Shown here: in pieces, positions 1,870-6,711 of the stretch
Layout: the number at the start of each line of letters is the position of its first letter
Position numbering within the stretch: position 1 is the first letter of the stretch
Origin: Nitrospinota bacterium
Lineage (GTDB): Bacteria > UBA8248
Assembly: GCA_030754595.1 (NCBI GenBank)
Contig: JASLZZ010000082.1
Coordinates: forward strand, 1-17,369
Length of the DNA: 17,369 bases
Direction: 5' to 3'
The notes under the pieces: generated by a model
The model's database searches: none
The model's input: only the letters and a program-made list of their open reading frames with translations
What the model was told of the DNA's origin: nothing
Made by a program: the position numbers and the translations under genes

Positions 1870-2673
1870 ATGAGACGGCCGGACCTGAGCGATCGCCTTC
1901 TCGCCTACCTCTTTTTCGCGGCCGCCGTCATTCTCGTCGCATGGTTCGCATATCTTCCAGGCCTGGCCCCGGCCTGGCGGCTCCCGGGCAGCCCGCAGCT
2001 CTACCGGTTCGGCCTCGCGGGCTCTTTTCTTTTGTTGGTCTCGCTCTTTTTCGTCCTCGCCAAGCGAACGCGGTGGGGCGGCTCCCCGGTCCGTTGGTTT
2101 TCGGCCCATATCGTGGCGGCTTTGGCGGGCGGCGTGTTGGTGGCGATTCATTCGGCGGGCCGCCTGCGCTACGCGCCGGCGCTTTTGCTTCTCGCCCTGG
2201 CGGCGCTTGCGGCGCTGGGTGTGTGGGCGCGCATTCAGCTTTCCCGGCGGATGTCCGCCACCTTCGCCGAAAAACACGAGAGCTTCGGTTTCATCAGGAA
2301 TGTCTCCGCCGGGGAAGCCCTCGCCGGGGACGAGGACCGGGAGCGCCTCGGGGCTCTCATCCGGAAAAAAGAGAGTCTTCTCGCGCGCCTTGAGCCCGGG
2401 GCCGGGGAGGGGACATTCTCGTTCACCCCGTCGCTCTGGCTGGCGCACCCGGTGTTGGCGGCGGCCTACGCCCGCCTCGTCAGGGAGGAGAGCGCCATCC
2501 TCGGCGTCCGGGAAAAAGTTCCAGCCGCGCAGGCCCACTGGCGTAGGCTTCATTTGACGCTGGCGGCGATCTTCGTCCTGGGGCTGATCGGCCACGTCGT
2601 CGTGGTCACCCTCTTCGCCGGCTACGTCTCGGGAGGGGAGGAGATATACTGGTGGCATCTCGCCGCATGGTGA
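1870..2673 (+). CDS. Integral membrane protein, putative di-haem b / ferric-reductase-like anchor
   Basis: About five hydrophobic helices; two of them each carry an H-x13-H pair (H80/H94 and H228/H242). Starts 4 nt after greA and lies directly upstream of the Mo enzyme. The CDS is well supported; the function is inferred. Confidence 0.7.
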   Translation: MRRPDLSDRLLAYLFFAAAVILVAWFAYLPGLAPAWRLPGSPQLYRFGLAGSFLLLVSLFFVLAKRTRWGGSPVRWFSAHIVAALAGGVLVAIHSAGRLRYAPALLLLALAALAALGVWARIQLSRRMSATFAEKHESFGFIRNVSAGEALAGDEDRERLGALIRKKESLLARLEPGAGEGTFSFTPSLWLAHPVLAAAYARLVREESAILGVREKVPAAQAHWRRLHLTLAAIFVLGLIGHVVVVTLFAGYVSGGEEIYWWHLAAW

Positions 2674-2746
2674 TTTGATCCGGATTTCAAGCTTCAAGCC
2701 TCGGGCCTGTGGCCCCCGGGCCGCCGACTCCGAGACGGGGGATTCC

Positions 2747-5722
2747 GTGAATCCGCTTTCCCTGATGATCGATCTCGAGCGGTGCTTCGGCTGCAAGAGT
2801 TGCGAGGCGGCCTGCAAGCAGGAGCACCGTCTCGGCCCGGCCGAGTACCGGACGAAGGTCGTCTGGCTGGACGATGCCTCGGGCGGGGGATTCGATTTCC
2901 TCACCCTGACCTGCCAGCACTGCGAGCGCCCCGCCTGCCTCCGGGCCTGTCCGGTGAACCCGGCCGCCATCTCAAAAAACCCCCTGACCGGGATCGTCGA
3001 GGTCAGGGAGGAGAGCTGCACGGGCTGCGGGGAGTGCGTCATCGCCTGCCCCTACAGCGCGATGGGATACGACCCGGTGGGACATCACGCCGTGAAGTGC
3101 GATTTGTGCCCGGACCGGAGGGAGGCCGGCCTCGAACCCGCCTGCGCGAGTATCTGCCCCGGCCACGCGATCCACTTCGGCGCGCGGGATGAACTCCTCG
3201 AGCGGGCCCGTCGCGAGGAGCGCGGCATCCGCGACCACGATCATTTCCTGCTCAAACCTCAGACCATCTACCTTGAGCGCCTGCGCAACGGAAACGGGGA
3301 GACTCATCCCCCTGCCGGTTTCGGTGTGCGTCCCGCCTTCGCCGATGCGCCGGGGGCCAAAAAAATATTCGTAGAAAAGAGTGCGAGTTTCCCCTACGGG
3401 GAGGAGCGGGAAGCCGCCGAGGTGGACCGGATTGAGCCGGGCGGGTGCAACATCTGCTTCAACTGCTGCAGCGTGAATTTTCACTTCCGGGGCGAGGAGC
3501 TGGTGAAGATCACCGGCAACGCCGAGGACCCGGTCCTGAAGGGGAGGCTCTGCCCCAAGGCGCAGATGACGCTCCAGATGTACCACAGCGAGCACCGCCT
3601 CACCCGGCCGCTCAAGCGCATCGGCAATAGAGGCGAGGGCGAGTTCGAGCCCATCGGCTGGGAGCAGGCCCTGGACGAGATCGCCGAAAAGCTTGAAAAA
3701 ATCCGCCTGAAATGGGGGCCCGAAGCCCTCGGCATGTACATCGGGACCCGGACGGGGCTGCTCACCAAGAGCGGCTACACGCGGCTCTTCGCCCAGATGT
3801 GGGGGACGCCCAACGTCGCGGGTACGGACCCGTTTTGCGCCACCGGGAAATCCATCGCCTACGAACTCACCCAGGGCGCGGTCGGCAGCGGCAACTCCTA
3901 CACCCCCGGCGACCTGGGCAGCGCCGGGATGTACCTCTACATCGGCGACAACCAGGCCGAAACGCGCCCCGTGTATTTCGGGATGATCAACGACTGGCGC
4001 ATCAAGAACCGCGCCCGGATGGTGGTCGTCGATCCCCGGTGCACGGTCACGGCCTCGAAGGCGGACAGCTGGCTGCCCATCCGGGCGGGGACGGATATGG
4101 CGCTCGCGCTCGCGCTGACCCACGAGATTTTATCCCGCGATCTTCACGACCGGAAATTCTGCGAGGAGTGGGCGCTGGGCTGGGAGCGGTGGCGCGATTT
4201 TATTTTCGAGAAGGGGTATACGCCCGAGTGGGCGGAGCCGCTGACCGGGATTCCCGCCGGGGATATCCGCGCGCTGGCCGCCGATATCGCCCGCGCCGAC
4301 GGCTGCGTCATCTTCGGCAGCCGGGGCCTGAACCAGCACACCAACGCCACACAGACCAACCGCGCGCTGATGTTCCTCGCCGCCATCACGGGCAACTGGG
4401 GCCGGAGGGGCGGCGCCTACTTCAACATGACGGCGGGCCCGCCCATTGCGCCGGACGCGCCGCCCGGCCGCCGGGCGCGGATCGAGCGGCCCCGGATTCG
4501 CCTGAGTCCGGCCGGGTGGATCGAGGCCATGCGCGGGGGCGCGCCCTATCCGCTGCGCGCGCTGATCTCCTGCAACAACCCGATGGCCCAGTGGCCGGGC
4601 CAGGCCGCCGCGCGGGAGGCTTTCGCCGGCCTTGAACTGATGGTCCATATCGAACTGTTCGCCAACGAGACCTCCGCCTTCGCGGATTATGTGCTTCCCG
4701 CCGCCGGAGGGATCGAGAAGGGTGAAATCGGGCGGGCGAACGATGACCGCCGCATCGTCTGGATCGAAAAGCTCATCGACCCGCCGGGGGAGGCGAAGCC
4801 GGACGGCTGGATCTGGATTGAGTTGGCCCGGCGGCTGGGCTACGGGGATGTGCTCAAGGAGGAGTACAAGGACCCCCGCGTATTCTGGGACGAGGTGTGC
4901 ATCCGGAACGACCACCTCCGGGGCGTCACCCAGAAGCGGCTTCACTCGGTCCCCTACCGCTGGGTGCGCTTTCCGGTGGCGAGCGAAGACGCCCCCGAGG
5001 AGGAAACCCTCTACCTCGAGGGAACCACGGCGGTGGGCTGGCCCGAGGGCCACCGCTTCCCGACCCCGAGCGGGAGGCTCGAGTTCTGGACCGAGGCGAT
5101 GGAGGAAAAATTCAAAGCCCTCGGCCTCTCGGCGCTGCCGGAGTTTTACAGCGACACTGAACAGCTTTTGGAAATGCCCTACGTGGTGTCCGAACACGGG
5201 GACGCGGAAATAGGTGTGATCTCGCCCTTCCACAAGGGCGCTCCGACTGGGGTCTCACGCTGCCGGATCGTCGCACCGGTCGCACCGGTCGCACCGATCG
5301 CACCGGGCGGTGATGATGGAGTAAGCCCCGGCGCCGCGCTGCGCGCGCGCGGCTTCGACACTGAACTGATCACGGGCCGCCCTCCCGCGCCCCACTTTCA
5401 TAGCTGGACCCATTATTTCTGGCAGGCCCAGGAGATGTGGCCGGACCTTTACTGCCAGATACATCCCGTACGGGCCGGGCGGTTGGGAGTGTCGGACGGC
5501 GACCGGATGCGGGTGGAGACCCCGCGCGGGAGCATCGAGGCGATGGCCTGGGTGAGCGCGGGAATCCGCGAGACGGCGGTGTTCATCCCCATCGGCTGGG
5601 GCGAGCGGCAGCCTTACCATCCCTGGCGGCCGGTCAACTTCCTGACCGACAAGGACCAGCGCGACCCGGTTTCGGACCAGACGAATTTGAAGAGCCTGCT
5701 CTGCCGAGTGTCGAAATATTGA
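2747..5722 (+). CDS. DMSO-reductase-family (bis-MGD) molybdopterin oxidoreductase with a fused N-terminal four-cluster ferredoxin
   Basis: The N-terminus has four Cys groups (CFGCKSCEAAC, CQHCERPACLRACP, CTGCGECVIACP, CDLC...PACASICP). These are followed by the FS0 motif CNICFNC...GRLCPK, RLTRPLKR, WEQALDEIA, VVVDPR, PIRAGTD, ADYVLPA, FPTPSGRLEF and a domain IV region (LITGR...IHP...GDRMRVETPRG). The likely start is GTG 2747 with a GGGGGA RBS; the ORF track extends to TTG 2675. Confidence 0.92.
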   Translation: MNPLSLMIDLERCFGCKSCEAACKQEHRLGPAEYRTKVVWLDDASGGGFDFLTLTCQHCERPACLRACPVNPAAISKNPLTGIVEVREESCTGCGECVIACPYSAMGYDPVGHHAVKCDLCPDRREAGLEPACASICPGHAIHFGARDELLERARREERGIRDHDHFLLKPQTIYLERLRNGNGETHPPAGFGVRPAFADAPGAKKIFVEKSASFPYGEEREAAEVDRIEPGGCNICFNCCSVNFHFRGEELVKITGNAEDPVLKGRLCPKAQMTLQMYHSEHRLTRPLKRIGNRGEGEFEPIGWEQALDEIAEKLEKIRLKWGPEALGMYIGTRTGLLTKSGYTRLFAQMWGTPNVAGTDPFCATGKSIAYELTQGAVGSGNSYTPGDLGSAGMYLYIGDNQAETRPVYFGMINDWRIKNRARMVVVDPRCTVTASKADSWLPIRAGTDMALALALTHEILSRDLHDRKFCEEWALGWERWRDFIFEKGYTPEWAEPLTGIPAGDIRALAADIARADGCVIFGSRGLNQHTNATQTNRALMFLAAITGNWGRRGGAYFNMTAGPPIAPDAPPGRRARIERPRIRLSPAGWIEAMRGGAPYPLRALISCNNPMAQWPGQAAAREAFAGLELMVHIELFANETSAFADYVLPAAGGIEKGEIGRANDDRRIVWIEKLIDPPGEAKPDGWIWIELARRLGYGDVLKEEYKDPRVFWDEVCIRNDHLRGVTQKRLHSVPYRWVRFPVASEDAPEEETLYLEGTTAVGWPEGHRFPTPSGRLEFWTEAMEEKFKALGLSALPEFYSDTEQLLEMPYVVSEHGDAEIGVISPFHKGAPTGVSRCRIVAPVAPVAPIAPGGDDGVSPGAALRARGFDTELITGRPPAPHFHSWTHYFWQAQEMWPDLYCQIHPVRAGRLGVSDGDRMRVETPRGSIEAMAWVSAGIRETAVFIPIGWGERQPYHPWRPVNFLTDKDQRDPVSDQTNLKSLLCRVSKY
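5270..5305 (+). repeat. 9-bp tandem repeat (G/A)TCGCACCG x4, encoding VAPVAPVAPIAP
   Basis: Three exact GTCGCACCG units and one ATCGCACCG unit, in frame within the Mo enzyme. Confidence 0.9.
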
Positions 5723-5760: not shown

Positions 5761-6303
5761 CTACTCGATAGGGTCAGGCGCGACGGGAAGGCAAACCTCG
5801 GTCCTGAGCCCGGCTTCGGGGACTTCGCGCGGGTCGTTGAGGTAGCGCTCGACGACCGGCCCCGCTACCCGGCGGAAGCCGCCGTAGGGGAGCCATTCCT
5901 CCTCGATGCGCCGGAGTGTGTCGCCGATCCGGTCGTAGGCCCCCTTGTGAACCGCCCCGGCGTACCACCCGCCGGGCATTTCGATTTCGCTCAATCTCTC
6001 GGGCACGGGCGCGCCGGGCGGAATCGCCCGGCAGGCGGCGTAGCCCCCGTCTTCTTGACGAAGGCCGAAGGGCGCACCTGCGGTGAGCGTTCCTGCGGCG
6101 AGCGCGCCTGCGGCTGGCCAGCCGCCAGCTGGCCAGCTGCCGCAACGGGAGATCAGCCGCCCCCAGAGGCGGCCCGCAGCTTCGGTTGAGACCTCCGTCG
6201 ATACTTCGGTCGAAGCTTCGATCAAGACCTCGGCGCTCTCCCGGAGTCCCGCCCCGCGAACGGCCTCGCGCCGCTCGACCTTAACAATCAGTTTCACCGC
6301 CAC
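5761..6303 (-). CDS. GyrI-like small-molecule-binding domain protein
   Basis: C-terminal PGGWYA...HKGAYDRIGDT...EEWLP...VVERYLNDPREVPEAGLRTEVCLPV is typical of GyrI-like/AraC effector-binding domains. GTG start with an AGAGGGAG RBS; the N-terminal half is degenerate and repetitive. Confidence 0.82.
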   Translation of the reverse strand: MAVKLIVKVERREAVRGAGLRESAEVLIEASTEVSTEVSTEAAGRLWGRLISRCGSWPAGGWPAAGALAAGTLTAGAPFGLRQEDGGYAACRAIPPGAPVPERLSEIEMPGGWYAGAVHKGAYDRIGDTLRRIEEEWLPYGGFRRVAGPVVERYLNDPREVPEAGLRTEVCLPVAPDPIE

Positions 6304-6348: not shown

Positions 6349-6711
6349 TCACCGGACGATGAGCAATCGCACCCCGGCCACGATGGCGACGAGGCCGACT
6401 GCGCGTCTGATGGCGATCCCTGGCAGATTCCGCAAAAAATAAGCTCCGATAAAGCCGCCGACGATCGCCCCGGCGGAGATGAGGACGGCGTATCGCCAGT
6501 TCATGTTTCCGTGGCGGATATTCTCGAACGAGGCGATGGAGGTGTTGGACAGCGAGGCCAGCATCGAGACCGCGACGACCTCCTGCGCCTTGATGCCGGG
6601 GATGAGAAACAGGGCGGGAACGGTGATGACGCCCCAGCCGACGCCTGTCGCGGCCTGAATCGTTCCCACCACGAGCCCGAGCACCAGTAAACCGATAGAC
6701 ATCAGATCCAA
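6349..6711 (-). CDS. Sulfite exporter TauE/SafE family membrane protein (half-size, about 4 TM)
   Basis: GTIQAATGVGWGVITVPAL and GAIVGGFIGAY motifs; 120 aa; GGGAG RBS. Confidence 0.82.
   Translation of the reverse strand: MDLMSIGLLVLGLVVGTIQAATGVGWGVITVPALFLIPGIKAQEVVAVSMLASLSNTSIASFENIRHGNMNWRYAVLISAGAIVGGFIGAYFLRNLPGIAIRRAVGLVAIVAGVRLLIVR

Follow-up and report, generated by a model that had tools for sequence, protein, structure and literature searches.

Several described systems come close to the gene pair reported here, a membrane anchor gene followed by a fused molybdoenzyme gene at 1870..5722 of contig JASLZZ010000082.1 from a Nitrospinota bacterium, and each differs from it in a definite way. 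The polysulfide/thiosulfate reductase PsrABC/PhsABC, represented by the Thermus thermophilus enzyme (PDB 2vpw), supplies the closest solved catalytic subunit, PsrA, with which the motif of the FS0 iron-sulfur cluster and the cysteine ligand of our protein align. However, here the B and A subunits form one polypeptide without a twin-arginine (Tat) leader, the catalytic site is placed in the cytoplasm and not in the periplasm, and the anchor is of a dihaem type with five transmembrane (TM) helices, whereas PsrC is a haem-free protein of the NrfD type. SoeABC, which the available text of PMC10100899 and PMC10839748 cites from Dahl et al. 2013 as a cytoplasm-facing sulfite:quinone oxidoreductase, resembles the pair as a cytoplasm-facing, membrane-bound and Cys-liganded MopB enzyme and acts on the substrate that we propose, a likeness of architecture; yet it consists of three subunits with an NrfD-type SoeC, and our anchor has no NrfD match. 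The respiratory nitrate reductase NarGHI shares the cytoplasmic Mo, FS0 and four iron-sulfur clusters followed by two b haems across the membrane, but its NarG and NarH are separate subunits, and its NarI belongs to an unrelated Pfam family, Nitrate_red_gam, which the anchor does not match. Finally, ActB of alternative complex III, the one MopB-ferredoxin fusion mentioned in the available text of Wells et al. 2023, likewise holds MopB-like and ferredoxin modules in one polypeptide. As described there, its modules follow the order A-B, its Mo cofactor and three clusters are lost and its partners are of the NrfD type, whereas our fusion reads B-A and keeps all of its ligands.

For the anchor, the closest described proteins belong to another setting. 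According to the available text of He et al. 2017 (PMC5566968), the PCC3 and PCC4 gene clusters contain a conserved protein called 'IMP' with five TM helices, an SGxxG motif on TM4 and two WX3HX13H motifs, which is predicted to bind two b haems and to move electrons across the inner membrane, is modelled as quinone-active, and adjoins a Fer4_11 gene in PCC4 subgroup II. These IMPs are predicted only and have never been characterised.

The window, by which we mean the whole stretch of 17,369 bp analysed here (about 63% G+C), is an entire contig from a 3.55-Mb draft genome, and public annotation of the pair consists only of 'molybdopterin-dependent oxidoreductase' and 'hypothetical protein'. An earlier note, made from the letters of the window, had proposed that the pair encodes a two-subunit membrane molybdoenzyme with a non-canonical anchor. 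We compared the pair with 80 fusion-relative loci taken from reference genomes, which are used for all neighbourhood counts below and are labelled as Nitrospinae/Nitrospinota or as Alpha-, Beta- or Gammaproteobacteria (Halomonas pelophila CS7 and the Olavius algarvensis Gamma 3 symbiont are included). Ligands were examined in two alignments, one of 17 fusion proteins (67-83% identity to the first of them) and one of 17 anchor homologues with 53-90% identity and a mean column identity of 64%. Presence and absence were scored in the window's phylum (51 genomes) and in 251 evenly sampled Burkholderiales genomes. The pair emerges as a real, uncharacterised variant among the complex iron-sulfur molybdoenzymes of the DmsABC/PsrABC/NarGHI type. 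Its best explanation, to which we assign a probability of about 0.55, is a membrane-bound Mo (or W) bis-MGD (MGD, molybdopterin guanine dinucleotide) oxidoreductase with the catalytic site facing the cytoplasm, our guess for its reaction being the oxidation of cytoplasmic sulfite to sulfate.

Architecture and proposed cofactor ligands of the gene pair

The features of the pair are given below, each with its position in the window and its strand; ORF stands for open reading frame.

1870..2673, + strand: gene of the membrane anchor (267 aa, five TM helices), a probable IMP-type dihaem cytochrome b
2095..2151, + strand: TM3 motif W76-x3-H80-x13-H94, with H80 proposed as an axial ligand of the proximal haem b and H94 of the distal one
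2539..2595, + strand: TM5 motif W224-x3-H228-x13-H242, with H228 proposed as the second ligand of the proximal haem b and H242 of the distal one
2747..5722, + strand: fused B::A gene, 991 aa, with ferredoxin domain, linker, FS0 and bis-MGD domain and no Tat leader; the ORF opens at TTG 2675
2783..3157, + strand: four ferredoxin Cys groups with 16 Cys, Pfam Fer4_11 (4.6e-23), expected to hold four [4Fe-4S] clusters (FS1-FS4)
3446..3553, + strand: FS0 motif C234-x2-C237-x3-C241-x27-C269, Pfam Molybdop_Fe4S4 (PF04879), invariant
3596..4831, + strand: Molybdopterin oxidoreductase domain PF00384 (7.4e-44)
3836..3838, + strand: C364 codon; C364, proposed to bind Mo, belongs to the 'F-C' of 'DPFCAxGK', which is invariant
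5366..5695, + strand: Molybdopterin dinucleotide-binding domain (Molydop_binding, PF01568; 1.3e-20)

The start of the fused gene is set at GTG 2747 because of the N-termini of its homologues, a GGGGGA stretch 6 nt upstream and a database twin of 991 aa, and the gap between the anchor gene and the fused gene is then 73 nt; upstream, the stop of greA (1383-1865) lies 4 nt ahead of the anchor ATG. All 16 cysteines of the four ferredoxin groups (C13/16/19/23, C56/59/64/68, C91/94/97/101 and C118/121/133/137) are invariant among the 17 fusions, and so are the FS0 motif and C364, which aligns with Cys173 of the T. thermophilus PsrA (2vpw_A), a residue that we take to be the Mo ligand of that enzyme. 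No twin-arginine leader is found in the 17 aligned N-termini and the first Cys group starts already at residue 13, hence the fusion protein must stay cytoplasmic. Separate A and B subunits are not the case: one ORF of 967-1013 aa covers both in the window and in all 120 best homologues listed, which are spread across phyla at 67-100% identity. What had been read from the window alone, that is, a single polypeptide with four ferredoxin Cys groups, FS0 and a full bis-MGD domain but no Tat leader, is thus borne out by the Pfam domains and by the invariant cysteines. As a lineage-specific detail, the window fusion carries a 12-residue Ala/Pro/Val-rich stretch with repeated 'APV/API' ahead of the dinucleotide-binding domain (about 5300-5340).

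The anchor gene is present in one copy in the window's genome, and its homologues, typically 257 aa long, are annotated as hypothetical. The AlphaFold2 model of the anchor (pLDDT 71.7) contains five long hydrophobic helices (residues 8-31, 42-67, 73-95, 102-146 and 219-253) together with a cytoplasmic loop, helical as well and some 95 residues long, from TM4 to TM5, in which the window anchor has 10 extra residues (2290-2319) relative to most homologues. The two H-x13-H helices recognised earlier directly ahead of the fused gene correspond to H80/H94 in helix 3 and H228/H242 in helix 5, and the six residues W76, H80, H94, W224, H228 and H242 are invariant in 17/17 aligned anchors, a conservation that exceeds chance; W261, H263 and W267 of the periplasmic tail are invariant in the same alignment.

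In respect of known families, the window anchor matched none in Pfam or NCBIfam. The NrfD/DmsC, NarI and FdnI/cytochrome b561 families of Pfam give no match to it, and none of them appears for any of the 17 anchors up to an E of 10; a single faint match to Ni_hydr_CYTB (Pfam, E 0.033) occurs in a plasmid-borne homologue. Pfam DUF4405 (PF14358) has no match in the window anchor either, although 13 of the 17 homologues match it at E up to 10, and the best of these matches, in P0226 (E 1.9e-6; 28.7 bits against a gathering cut-off of 26.7), is confined to the helix of the TM5 motif (profile positions 36-63). Comparisons of the model with other structures led to similar outcomes: the top Foldseek match in the PDB had an E of 1.1, so that none reached 0.001, the highest Z from VIA-align wide was 7.5, which is the noise level for helical bundles, and the ESM Atlas yielded only unnamed 'hypothetical protein' clusters. 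STEAP4 stands third in the Foldseek ranking with a non-significant E of 1.7, and the ferric reductase domain (Nox/STEAP/MsrQ) has no Pfam match.

Co-inheritance and predicted docking of the two proteins

The two genes are inherited together. Directly upstream of the fused gene and on the same strand, a match to the hidden Markov model of the anchor is found in 76 of the 80 loci, and in the four others the fused gene lies at the edge of the available DNA, so that the adjacency holds in 76/76 testable loci across four classes or phyla. Within the window's phylum, 36 of the 51 genomes have the anchor, exactly these 36 have the fusion, and 15 are without both. Among the 251 Burkholderiales genomes, both genes occur in 7 (about 3%), an eighth has a fusion fragment cut by the contig end, and a full-length anchor without the fusion occurs in none. 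Across all clades of the 80 loci, no gene besides the pair is conserved.

Two further observations concern the copies themselves. A genome of the same genus as the window's genome retains, side by side, no more than residues 1-50 of the anchor and residues 742-981 of the fusion, the latter with one TGA (G048:C8:18578-19426), which looks like one deletion that hit both genes. One Burkholderiales genome (G207) has two complete pairs, at C5:171060-174817 and C20:129171-132927.

A complex of the two proteins is also predicted by modelling, in which the ferredoxin domain (residues 1-225) and the anchor were each entered as an alignment. The docking reached an ipSAE of 0.78 (0.82, 0.75 and 0.78 in the individual runs) against 0.00 for the best of three controls, the runs share at least 94% of their contacts and the pLDDT of the partner is at least 79; in calibration, the mark for this score was passed by 116 of 157 solved complexes and by 2 of 215 mismatched pairs, counts that are approximate since our own alignments were used. 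On the ferredoxin side, the predicted interface comprises residues 60-79 and 88-114, around C68 and C91/94/97, which by analogy with NarH we take to be the ligands of FS4, the cluster that adjoins the anchor in known enzymes. On the anchor side it comprises the N-terminus, the TM2-TM3 loop and the long TM4-TM5 loop, segments which, judged by the positive-inside pattern, should all be cytoplasmic. The docking expresses the confidence of a model and is not a measurement. Both the co-conservation of the pair and an interface between its products had been put forward as checks by the earlier note, and in view of the two outcomes the genes very probably encode one real complex.

Contigs of 151-206 nt that are 100% identical to the window over 2077-2282, 3502-3775 and 4714-4879, together with a 34-nt piece, come from two seawater metatranscriptome runs of one study; since DNA can occur in metatranscriptome libraries, these matches do not show transcription or co-transcription.

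Kinship of the anchor with IMP proteins

Although the anchor falls outside the named anchor families, it is not wholly unprecedented, because it is, judged from profiles and motifs, homologous to the predicted dihaem proteins of the IMP type. Five Burkholderiales genomes gave weak matches to the anchor profile, with E of 1e-7 to 1e-11 per genome. The five matched proteins (277-323 aa) share the plan of the anchor: besides a PGS..Y..G motif and a basic loop, they have W-x3-H-x13-HS in helix 3 and W-x3-H-x13-H in the last helix, as well as a long loop that is helical, and hhalign aligned them with the anchor profile at 98.4% probability (E 8e-15 over 96 columns). Their genes are adjoined by multihaem cytochromes c in 5/5 cases and by a Fer4-flavoprotein in 2/5, and we take them to be cytochrome-associated proteins of the IMP type. 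The earlier claim of a non-canonical anchor therefore stands as far as the NrfD/DmsC, NarI and FdnI families of Pfam are concerned, but not in the sense of an anchor without precedent.

The likeness to the IMPs extends to the five TM helices, to W-x3-H-x13-H on both TM3 and TM5 and, with the available text of He et al. 2017 (PMC5566968) as the reference for PCC4 subgroup II, to a neighbouring Fer4_11 module, which here is a part of the fused gene. There are also clear differences. Of the SGxxG motif on TM4, the anchor keeps the last Gly alone (G117, in LGVWAR), neither a multihaem cytochrome nor a porin adjoins the pair, all 80 loci are free of ORFs with at least two CxxCH motifs within 4 kb, and the partner is a molybdoenzyme, which the PCC clusters lack. 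The fusion protein is a first candidate catalytic partner for the IMP family, which has so far been discussed beside multihaem cytochromes only, and it could help explain how multihaem-cytochrome conduits are linked to the cytoplasm.

Placement of the catalytic module

The fusion reaches no curated cut-off of NCBIfam. Its best score is 292.3 bits for the formate dehydrogenase alpha subunit model (Fdh-alpha TIGR01591, cut-off 666.25), followed by PhsA NF012032 (266.6 bits, cut-off 694), DmsA/YnfE (219) and NasC (202); narG is absent among the 25 best matches, and no SoeA model is found among the NCBIfam matches. The closest solved relatives are PsrA (219 bits) and then FdhF of the HDCR complex (215 bits), while PsrB matches the four-cluster ferredoxin domain with 78.5 bits.

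When the catalytic domain was searched against 1.84 billion cluster representatives, the fused family appeared as one single representative. The next relatives are two unfused and Tat-less proteins, P0243 and P0244 (55% and 49% identity), with N-termini that start from the conserved 'FPY' linker. Then come Tat-bearing relatives at 34-43% identity, of which P0246 and P0248 (40-43%) have clear twin-arginine leaders, and a further group of about 690 aa at 32-36%; thus both cytoplasmic and periplasmic cousins of the catalytic domain exist. Among the nearest cluster representatives, 13 were scanned, and none of these passes any curated cut-off. A description of a B::A fusion with this anchor was not found in the literature searched, outside which most subscription journals and supplements lie, and a comparison of Nitrospinota (PMC10839748) does not use the word molybdopterin anywhere. 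Taken together, the pair lies outside the characterised clades, as had been supposed.

Substrate clues in the gene neighbourhood

The sulfur chemistry at which the earlier note weakly hinted was based on a TauE/SafE gene near the pair, which lies with a second gene downstream of it:

5761-6303, - strand: GyrI-like gene, beside the TauE ORF
6349-6711, - strand: TauE/SafE ORF, 120 aa, matching only positions 1-109 of the 237 in PF01925, its N-terminal half

The same short ORF beside the GyrI-like gene is kept in one other locus (L001, 72% identity), which makes it look like a real half-size gene and not debris; the GyrI-like gene is downstream of the pair in 10 Nitrospinota-like loci, the window included. 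With a single related locus sharing it, TauE was dropped as a conserved neighbour. Likewise, a TRAP transporter and a MocR-type regulator in Halomonas were considered as a sulfonate link and dropped, for the regulator scores as PdxR-like.

A better support for a sulfur link is given by TauD-like neighbours in Alphaproteobacteria, so that the hint itself survives while the TauE gene is weaker evidence for it than had been claimed. It is the one substrate clue that recurs. A gene of the TauD family stands beside the pair in 13 of the 80 loci, in 11 of them upstream on the same strand and in 10 directly abutting the anchor gene, and on a FastTree phylogeny of 76 fusions these loci fall into three alphaproteobacterial subclades with at least four state changes. 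Taurine dioxygenase is the best family for the four of the 13 TauD-like proteins that were scanned (214-287 bits). Since TauD releases sulfite in the cytoplasm, a sulfite:acceptor oxidoreductase is the best guess for the function of the pair. In addition, ATP sulfurylase and a BisC-family enzyme occur in a cluster with the pair in one locus (L039), and on plasmid NZ_CP049042.1 the pair has a PF03601 'putative sulfate exporter' at a distance of about 5 kb. That the closest solved relative, PsrA (219 bits), is a polysulfide reductase also speaks for sulfur chemistry. Sulfite, oxidised in the cytoplasm to sulfate by a functional analogue of SoeABC, is thus the leading candidate substrate, but as a guess about the substrate itself it is a tentative one.

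Proposed mechanism and its alternatives

In the explanation which we prefer, the 991-aa B::A fusion would carry Mo, FS0 and four [4Fe-4S] clusters, and its FS4 face is predicted to dock on the cytoplasmic loops of the five-helix anchor, which in turn would hold a proximal haem b between H80 and H228 and a distal haem b between H94 and H242. From this arrangement we infer an electron chain of Mo, FS0, FS1-4, proximal haem and distal haem that would link a cytoplasmic substrate to the far side of the membrane, where the electrons would most likely meet a quinone/quinol site near the distal haem. Because no further partner gene is conserved, quinone is the most economical end point, and we lean, with somewhat better than even odds, towards a quinone-coupled complex.

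Several points weigh against this explanation. By analogy with anchors of the NarI/FdnI type, transfer from a very low-potential donor to a distal quinone across the membrane would waste energy, and a dihaem anchor that spans the membrane is energetically better suited to a NarGHI-like reductase. The anchor model is a moderate one (pLDDT 71.7) and has no match to any solved fold. As to the substrate, 67 of the 80 loci are without a TauD-family gene in the cluster beside the pair, the annotated neighbours in the Nitrospinota-like, beta and gamma clades are housekeeping genes, all four TauD-like proteins scanned (4/4) stay under the 313-bit cut-off for taurine dioxygenase, the TauE half-gene recurs in only 1 of 80 related loci, and the Halomonas regulator is PdxR-like and not a sulfonate regulator. 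Moreover, the window's genome contains a separate set (G000:C134, L095:2891-7427, - strand), in which a Tat-less MopB protein of about 958 aa is preceded by a 546-aa Fer4_11::NrfD protein, a B::C fusion; the set is possibly a SoeABC-like enzyme, beside which a second sulfite dehydrogenase would be redundant. Against the fusion profile this set scores only 81.6 bits.

The alternative that survives best, although we consider it clearly less probable than the explanation above, reverses the direction of electron flow. As in NarGHI, quinol would be oxidised on the periplasmic side near the distal haem and an oxyanion or oxide would be reduced at Mo in the cytoplasm, yielding proton-motive force; nitrate, chlorate, selenate and tetrathionate/thiosulfate come into question as substrates, and so does an S- or N-oxide. 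A cytoplasm-facing site combined with a membrane-spanning dihaem anchor is indeed the layout of NarGHI, and such a layout conserves energy only for a reductase. The housekeeping genes that surround the pair in most clades would suit a standing respiratory enzyme, and the nearest families include PhsA (267 bits), DmsA/YnfE (219) and NasC (202). However, no family cut-off is reached, no conserved substrate transporter stands beside the pair, the association with TauD points to a product that is being oxidised, and the ligand is Cys and not the Asp that binds Mo in NarG.

A second alternative, which seems to us unlikely, concerns the far end of the chain: the anchor might be a pure transmembrane wire without a quinone site, which passes electrons to a periplasmic redox protein (cytochrome c or another enzyme) encoded elsewhere. 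It is the kinship with the IMPs that keeps such a periplasmic protein partner a live rival, since the hhalign match (98.4%, E 8e-15) joins the anchor to proteins whose genes all stand beside multihaem cytochromes c, and the invariant W261, H263 and W267 of the periplasmic tail agree with it. In the available text of He et al. 2017 (PMC5566968), electron transfer by IMP across the inner membrane is proposed, but the same authors treat IMP as quinone-active. Moreover, no cytochrome c gene is conserved near the pair, and an ORF with multiple CxxCH motifs within 4 kb was found in 0/80 loci.

The two remaining alternatives are very poorly supported. For a membrane-bound cytoplasmic formate dehydrogenase, the best NCBIfam score (Fdh-alpha TIGR01591, 292 bits) and the second-best solved relative (FdhF of HDCR, 215 bits) could be quoted, but this score is far under the 666-bit cut-off, and formate dehydrogenases have a (Sec/Cys)-His dyad at the ligand, whereas the residue after C364 is Ala, Ser or Gly in 17/17 fusions and never His. 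That there is no complex at all, the fusion being a soluble cytoplasmic enzyme and the anchor a mere syntenic neighbour, is just as improbable: the docking score is the model's own confidence and P0243 and P0244 are unfused, Tat-less relatives, but the presence and absence of the two genes match exactly in 51 + 251 genomes, adjacency holds in 76/76 loci, a single apparent deletion took parts of both genes in G048, and the four-cluster ferredoxin wire is without another obvious end point.

Returning to the oxidative, cytoplasm-facing enzyme, a wider and rather speculative extension can be considered, in which IMP-type dihaem proteins would be general transmembrane couplers that dock four-cluster ferredoxins. 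One of them may have been recruited into a new class of respiratory molybdoenzymes for a SoeABC-independent cytoplasmic oxidation of sulfite, for instance that released by TauD, with the electrons going to quinone or to a periplasmic acceptor. If true, the users of such a route would be marine and soil Alpha-, Beta- and Gammaproteobacteria together with Nitrospinota-like bacteria. A respiratory-type enzyme with an iron-sulfur chain and probably two haems is missing from the metabolic reconstructions of its carriers, two of which are in culture, Halomonas pelophila CS7 and Pseudohalocynthiibacter aestuariivivens RR4-35.

Further observations on neighbouring genes and other molybdoenzymes

The TauD-like gene has a conserved ORF of about 185-195 aa, without a Pfam match, immediately upstream of it in several loci (L069:3792-4343, L073:3749-4333, L076:3807-4364 and L051:3204-3776 among the positions). 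These ORFs form one blast cluster with 5 loci from one alphaproteobacterial subclade and a separate one with 3 loci from another, and the operon may thus have a fourth member. In the cultured Rhodobacterales P. aestuariivivens RR4-35 the pair is on a 90-kb plasmid, pRR4-35_5, where a catabolic-looking cluster surrounds it (L135, plasmid NZ_CP049042.1 12957-33164), with a Rieske protein, a hybrid-cluster NAD(P) oxidoreductase, an amidohydrolase, BetB and a LysR regulator, as well as another MopB protein (733 aa) and the PF03601 exporter.

The window's genome is rich in other molybdoenzymes. Two large catalytic subunits of the type II DMSO-reductase family are encoded on C66 (L101:1831-5313) and C33 (L102:1334-6452), with ORFs of 1161 and 1167 aa; the subunit on C33 is adjoined by genes for an iron-sulfur subunit and a chaperone, an arrangement similar to nitrite oxidoreductase. 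To these are added a BisC-family enzyme (C50), a YdeP-family enzyme (C100) and three more MopB proteins of about 800 aa.

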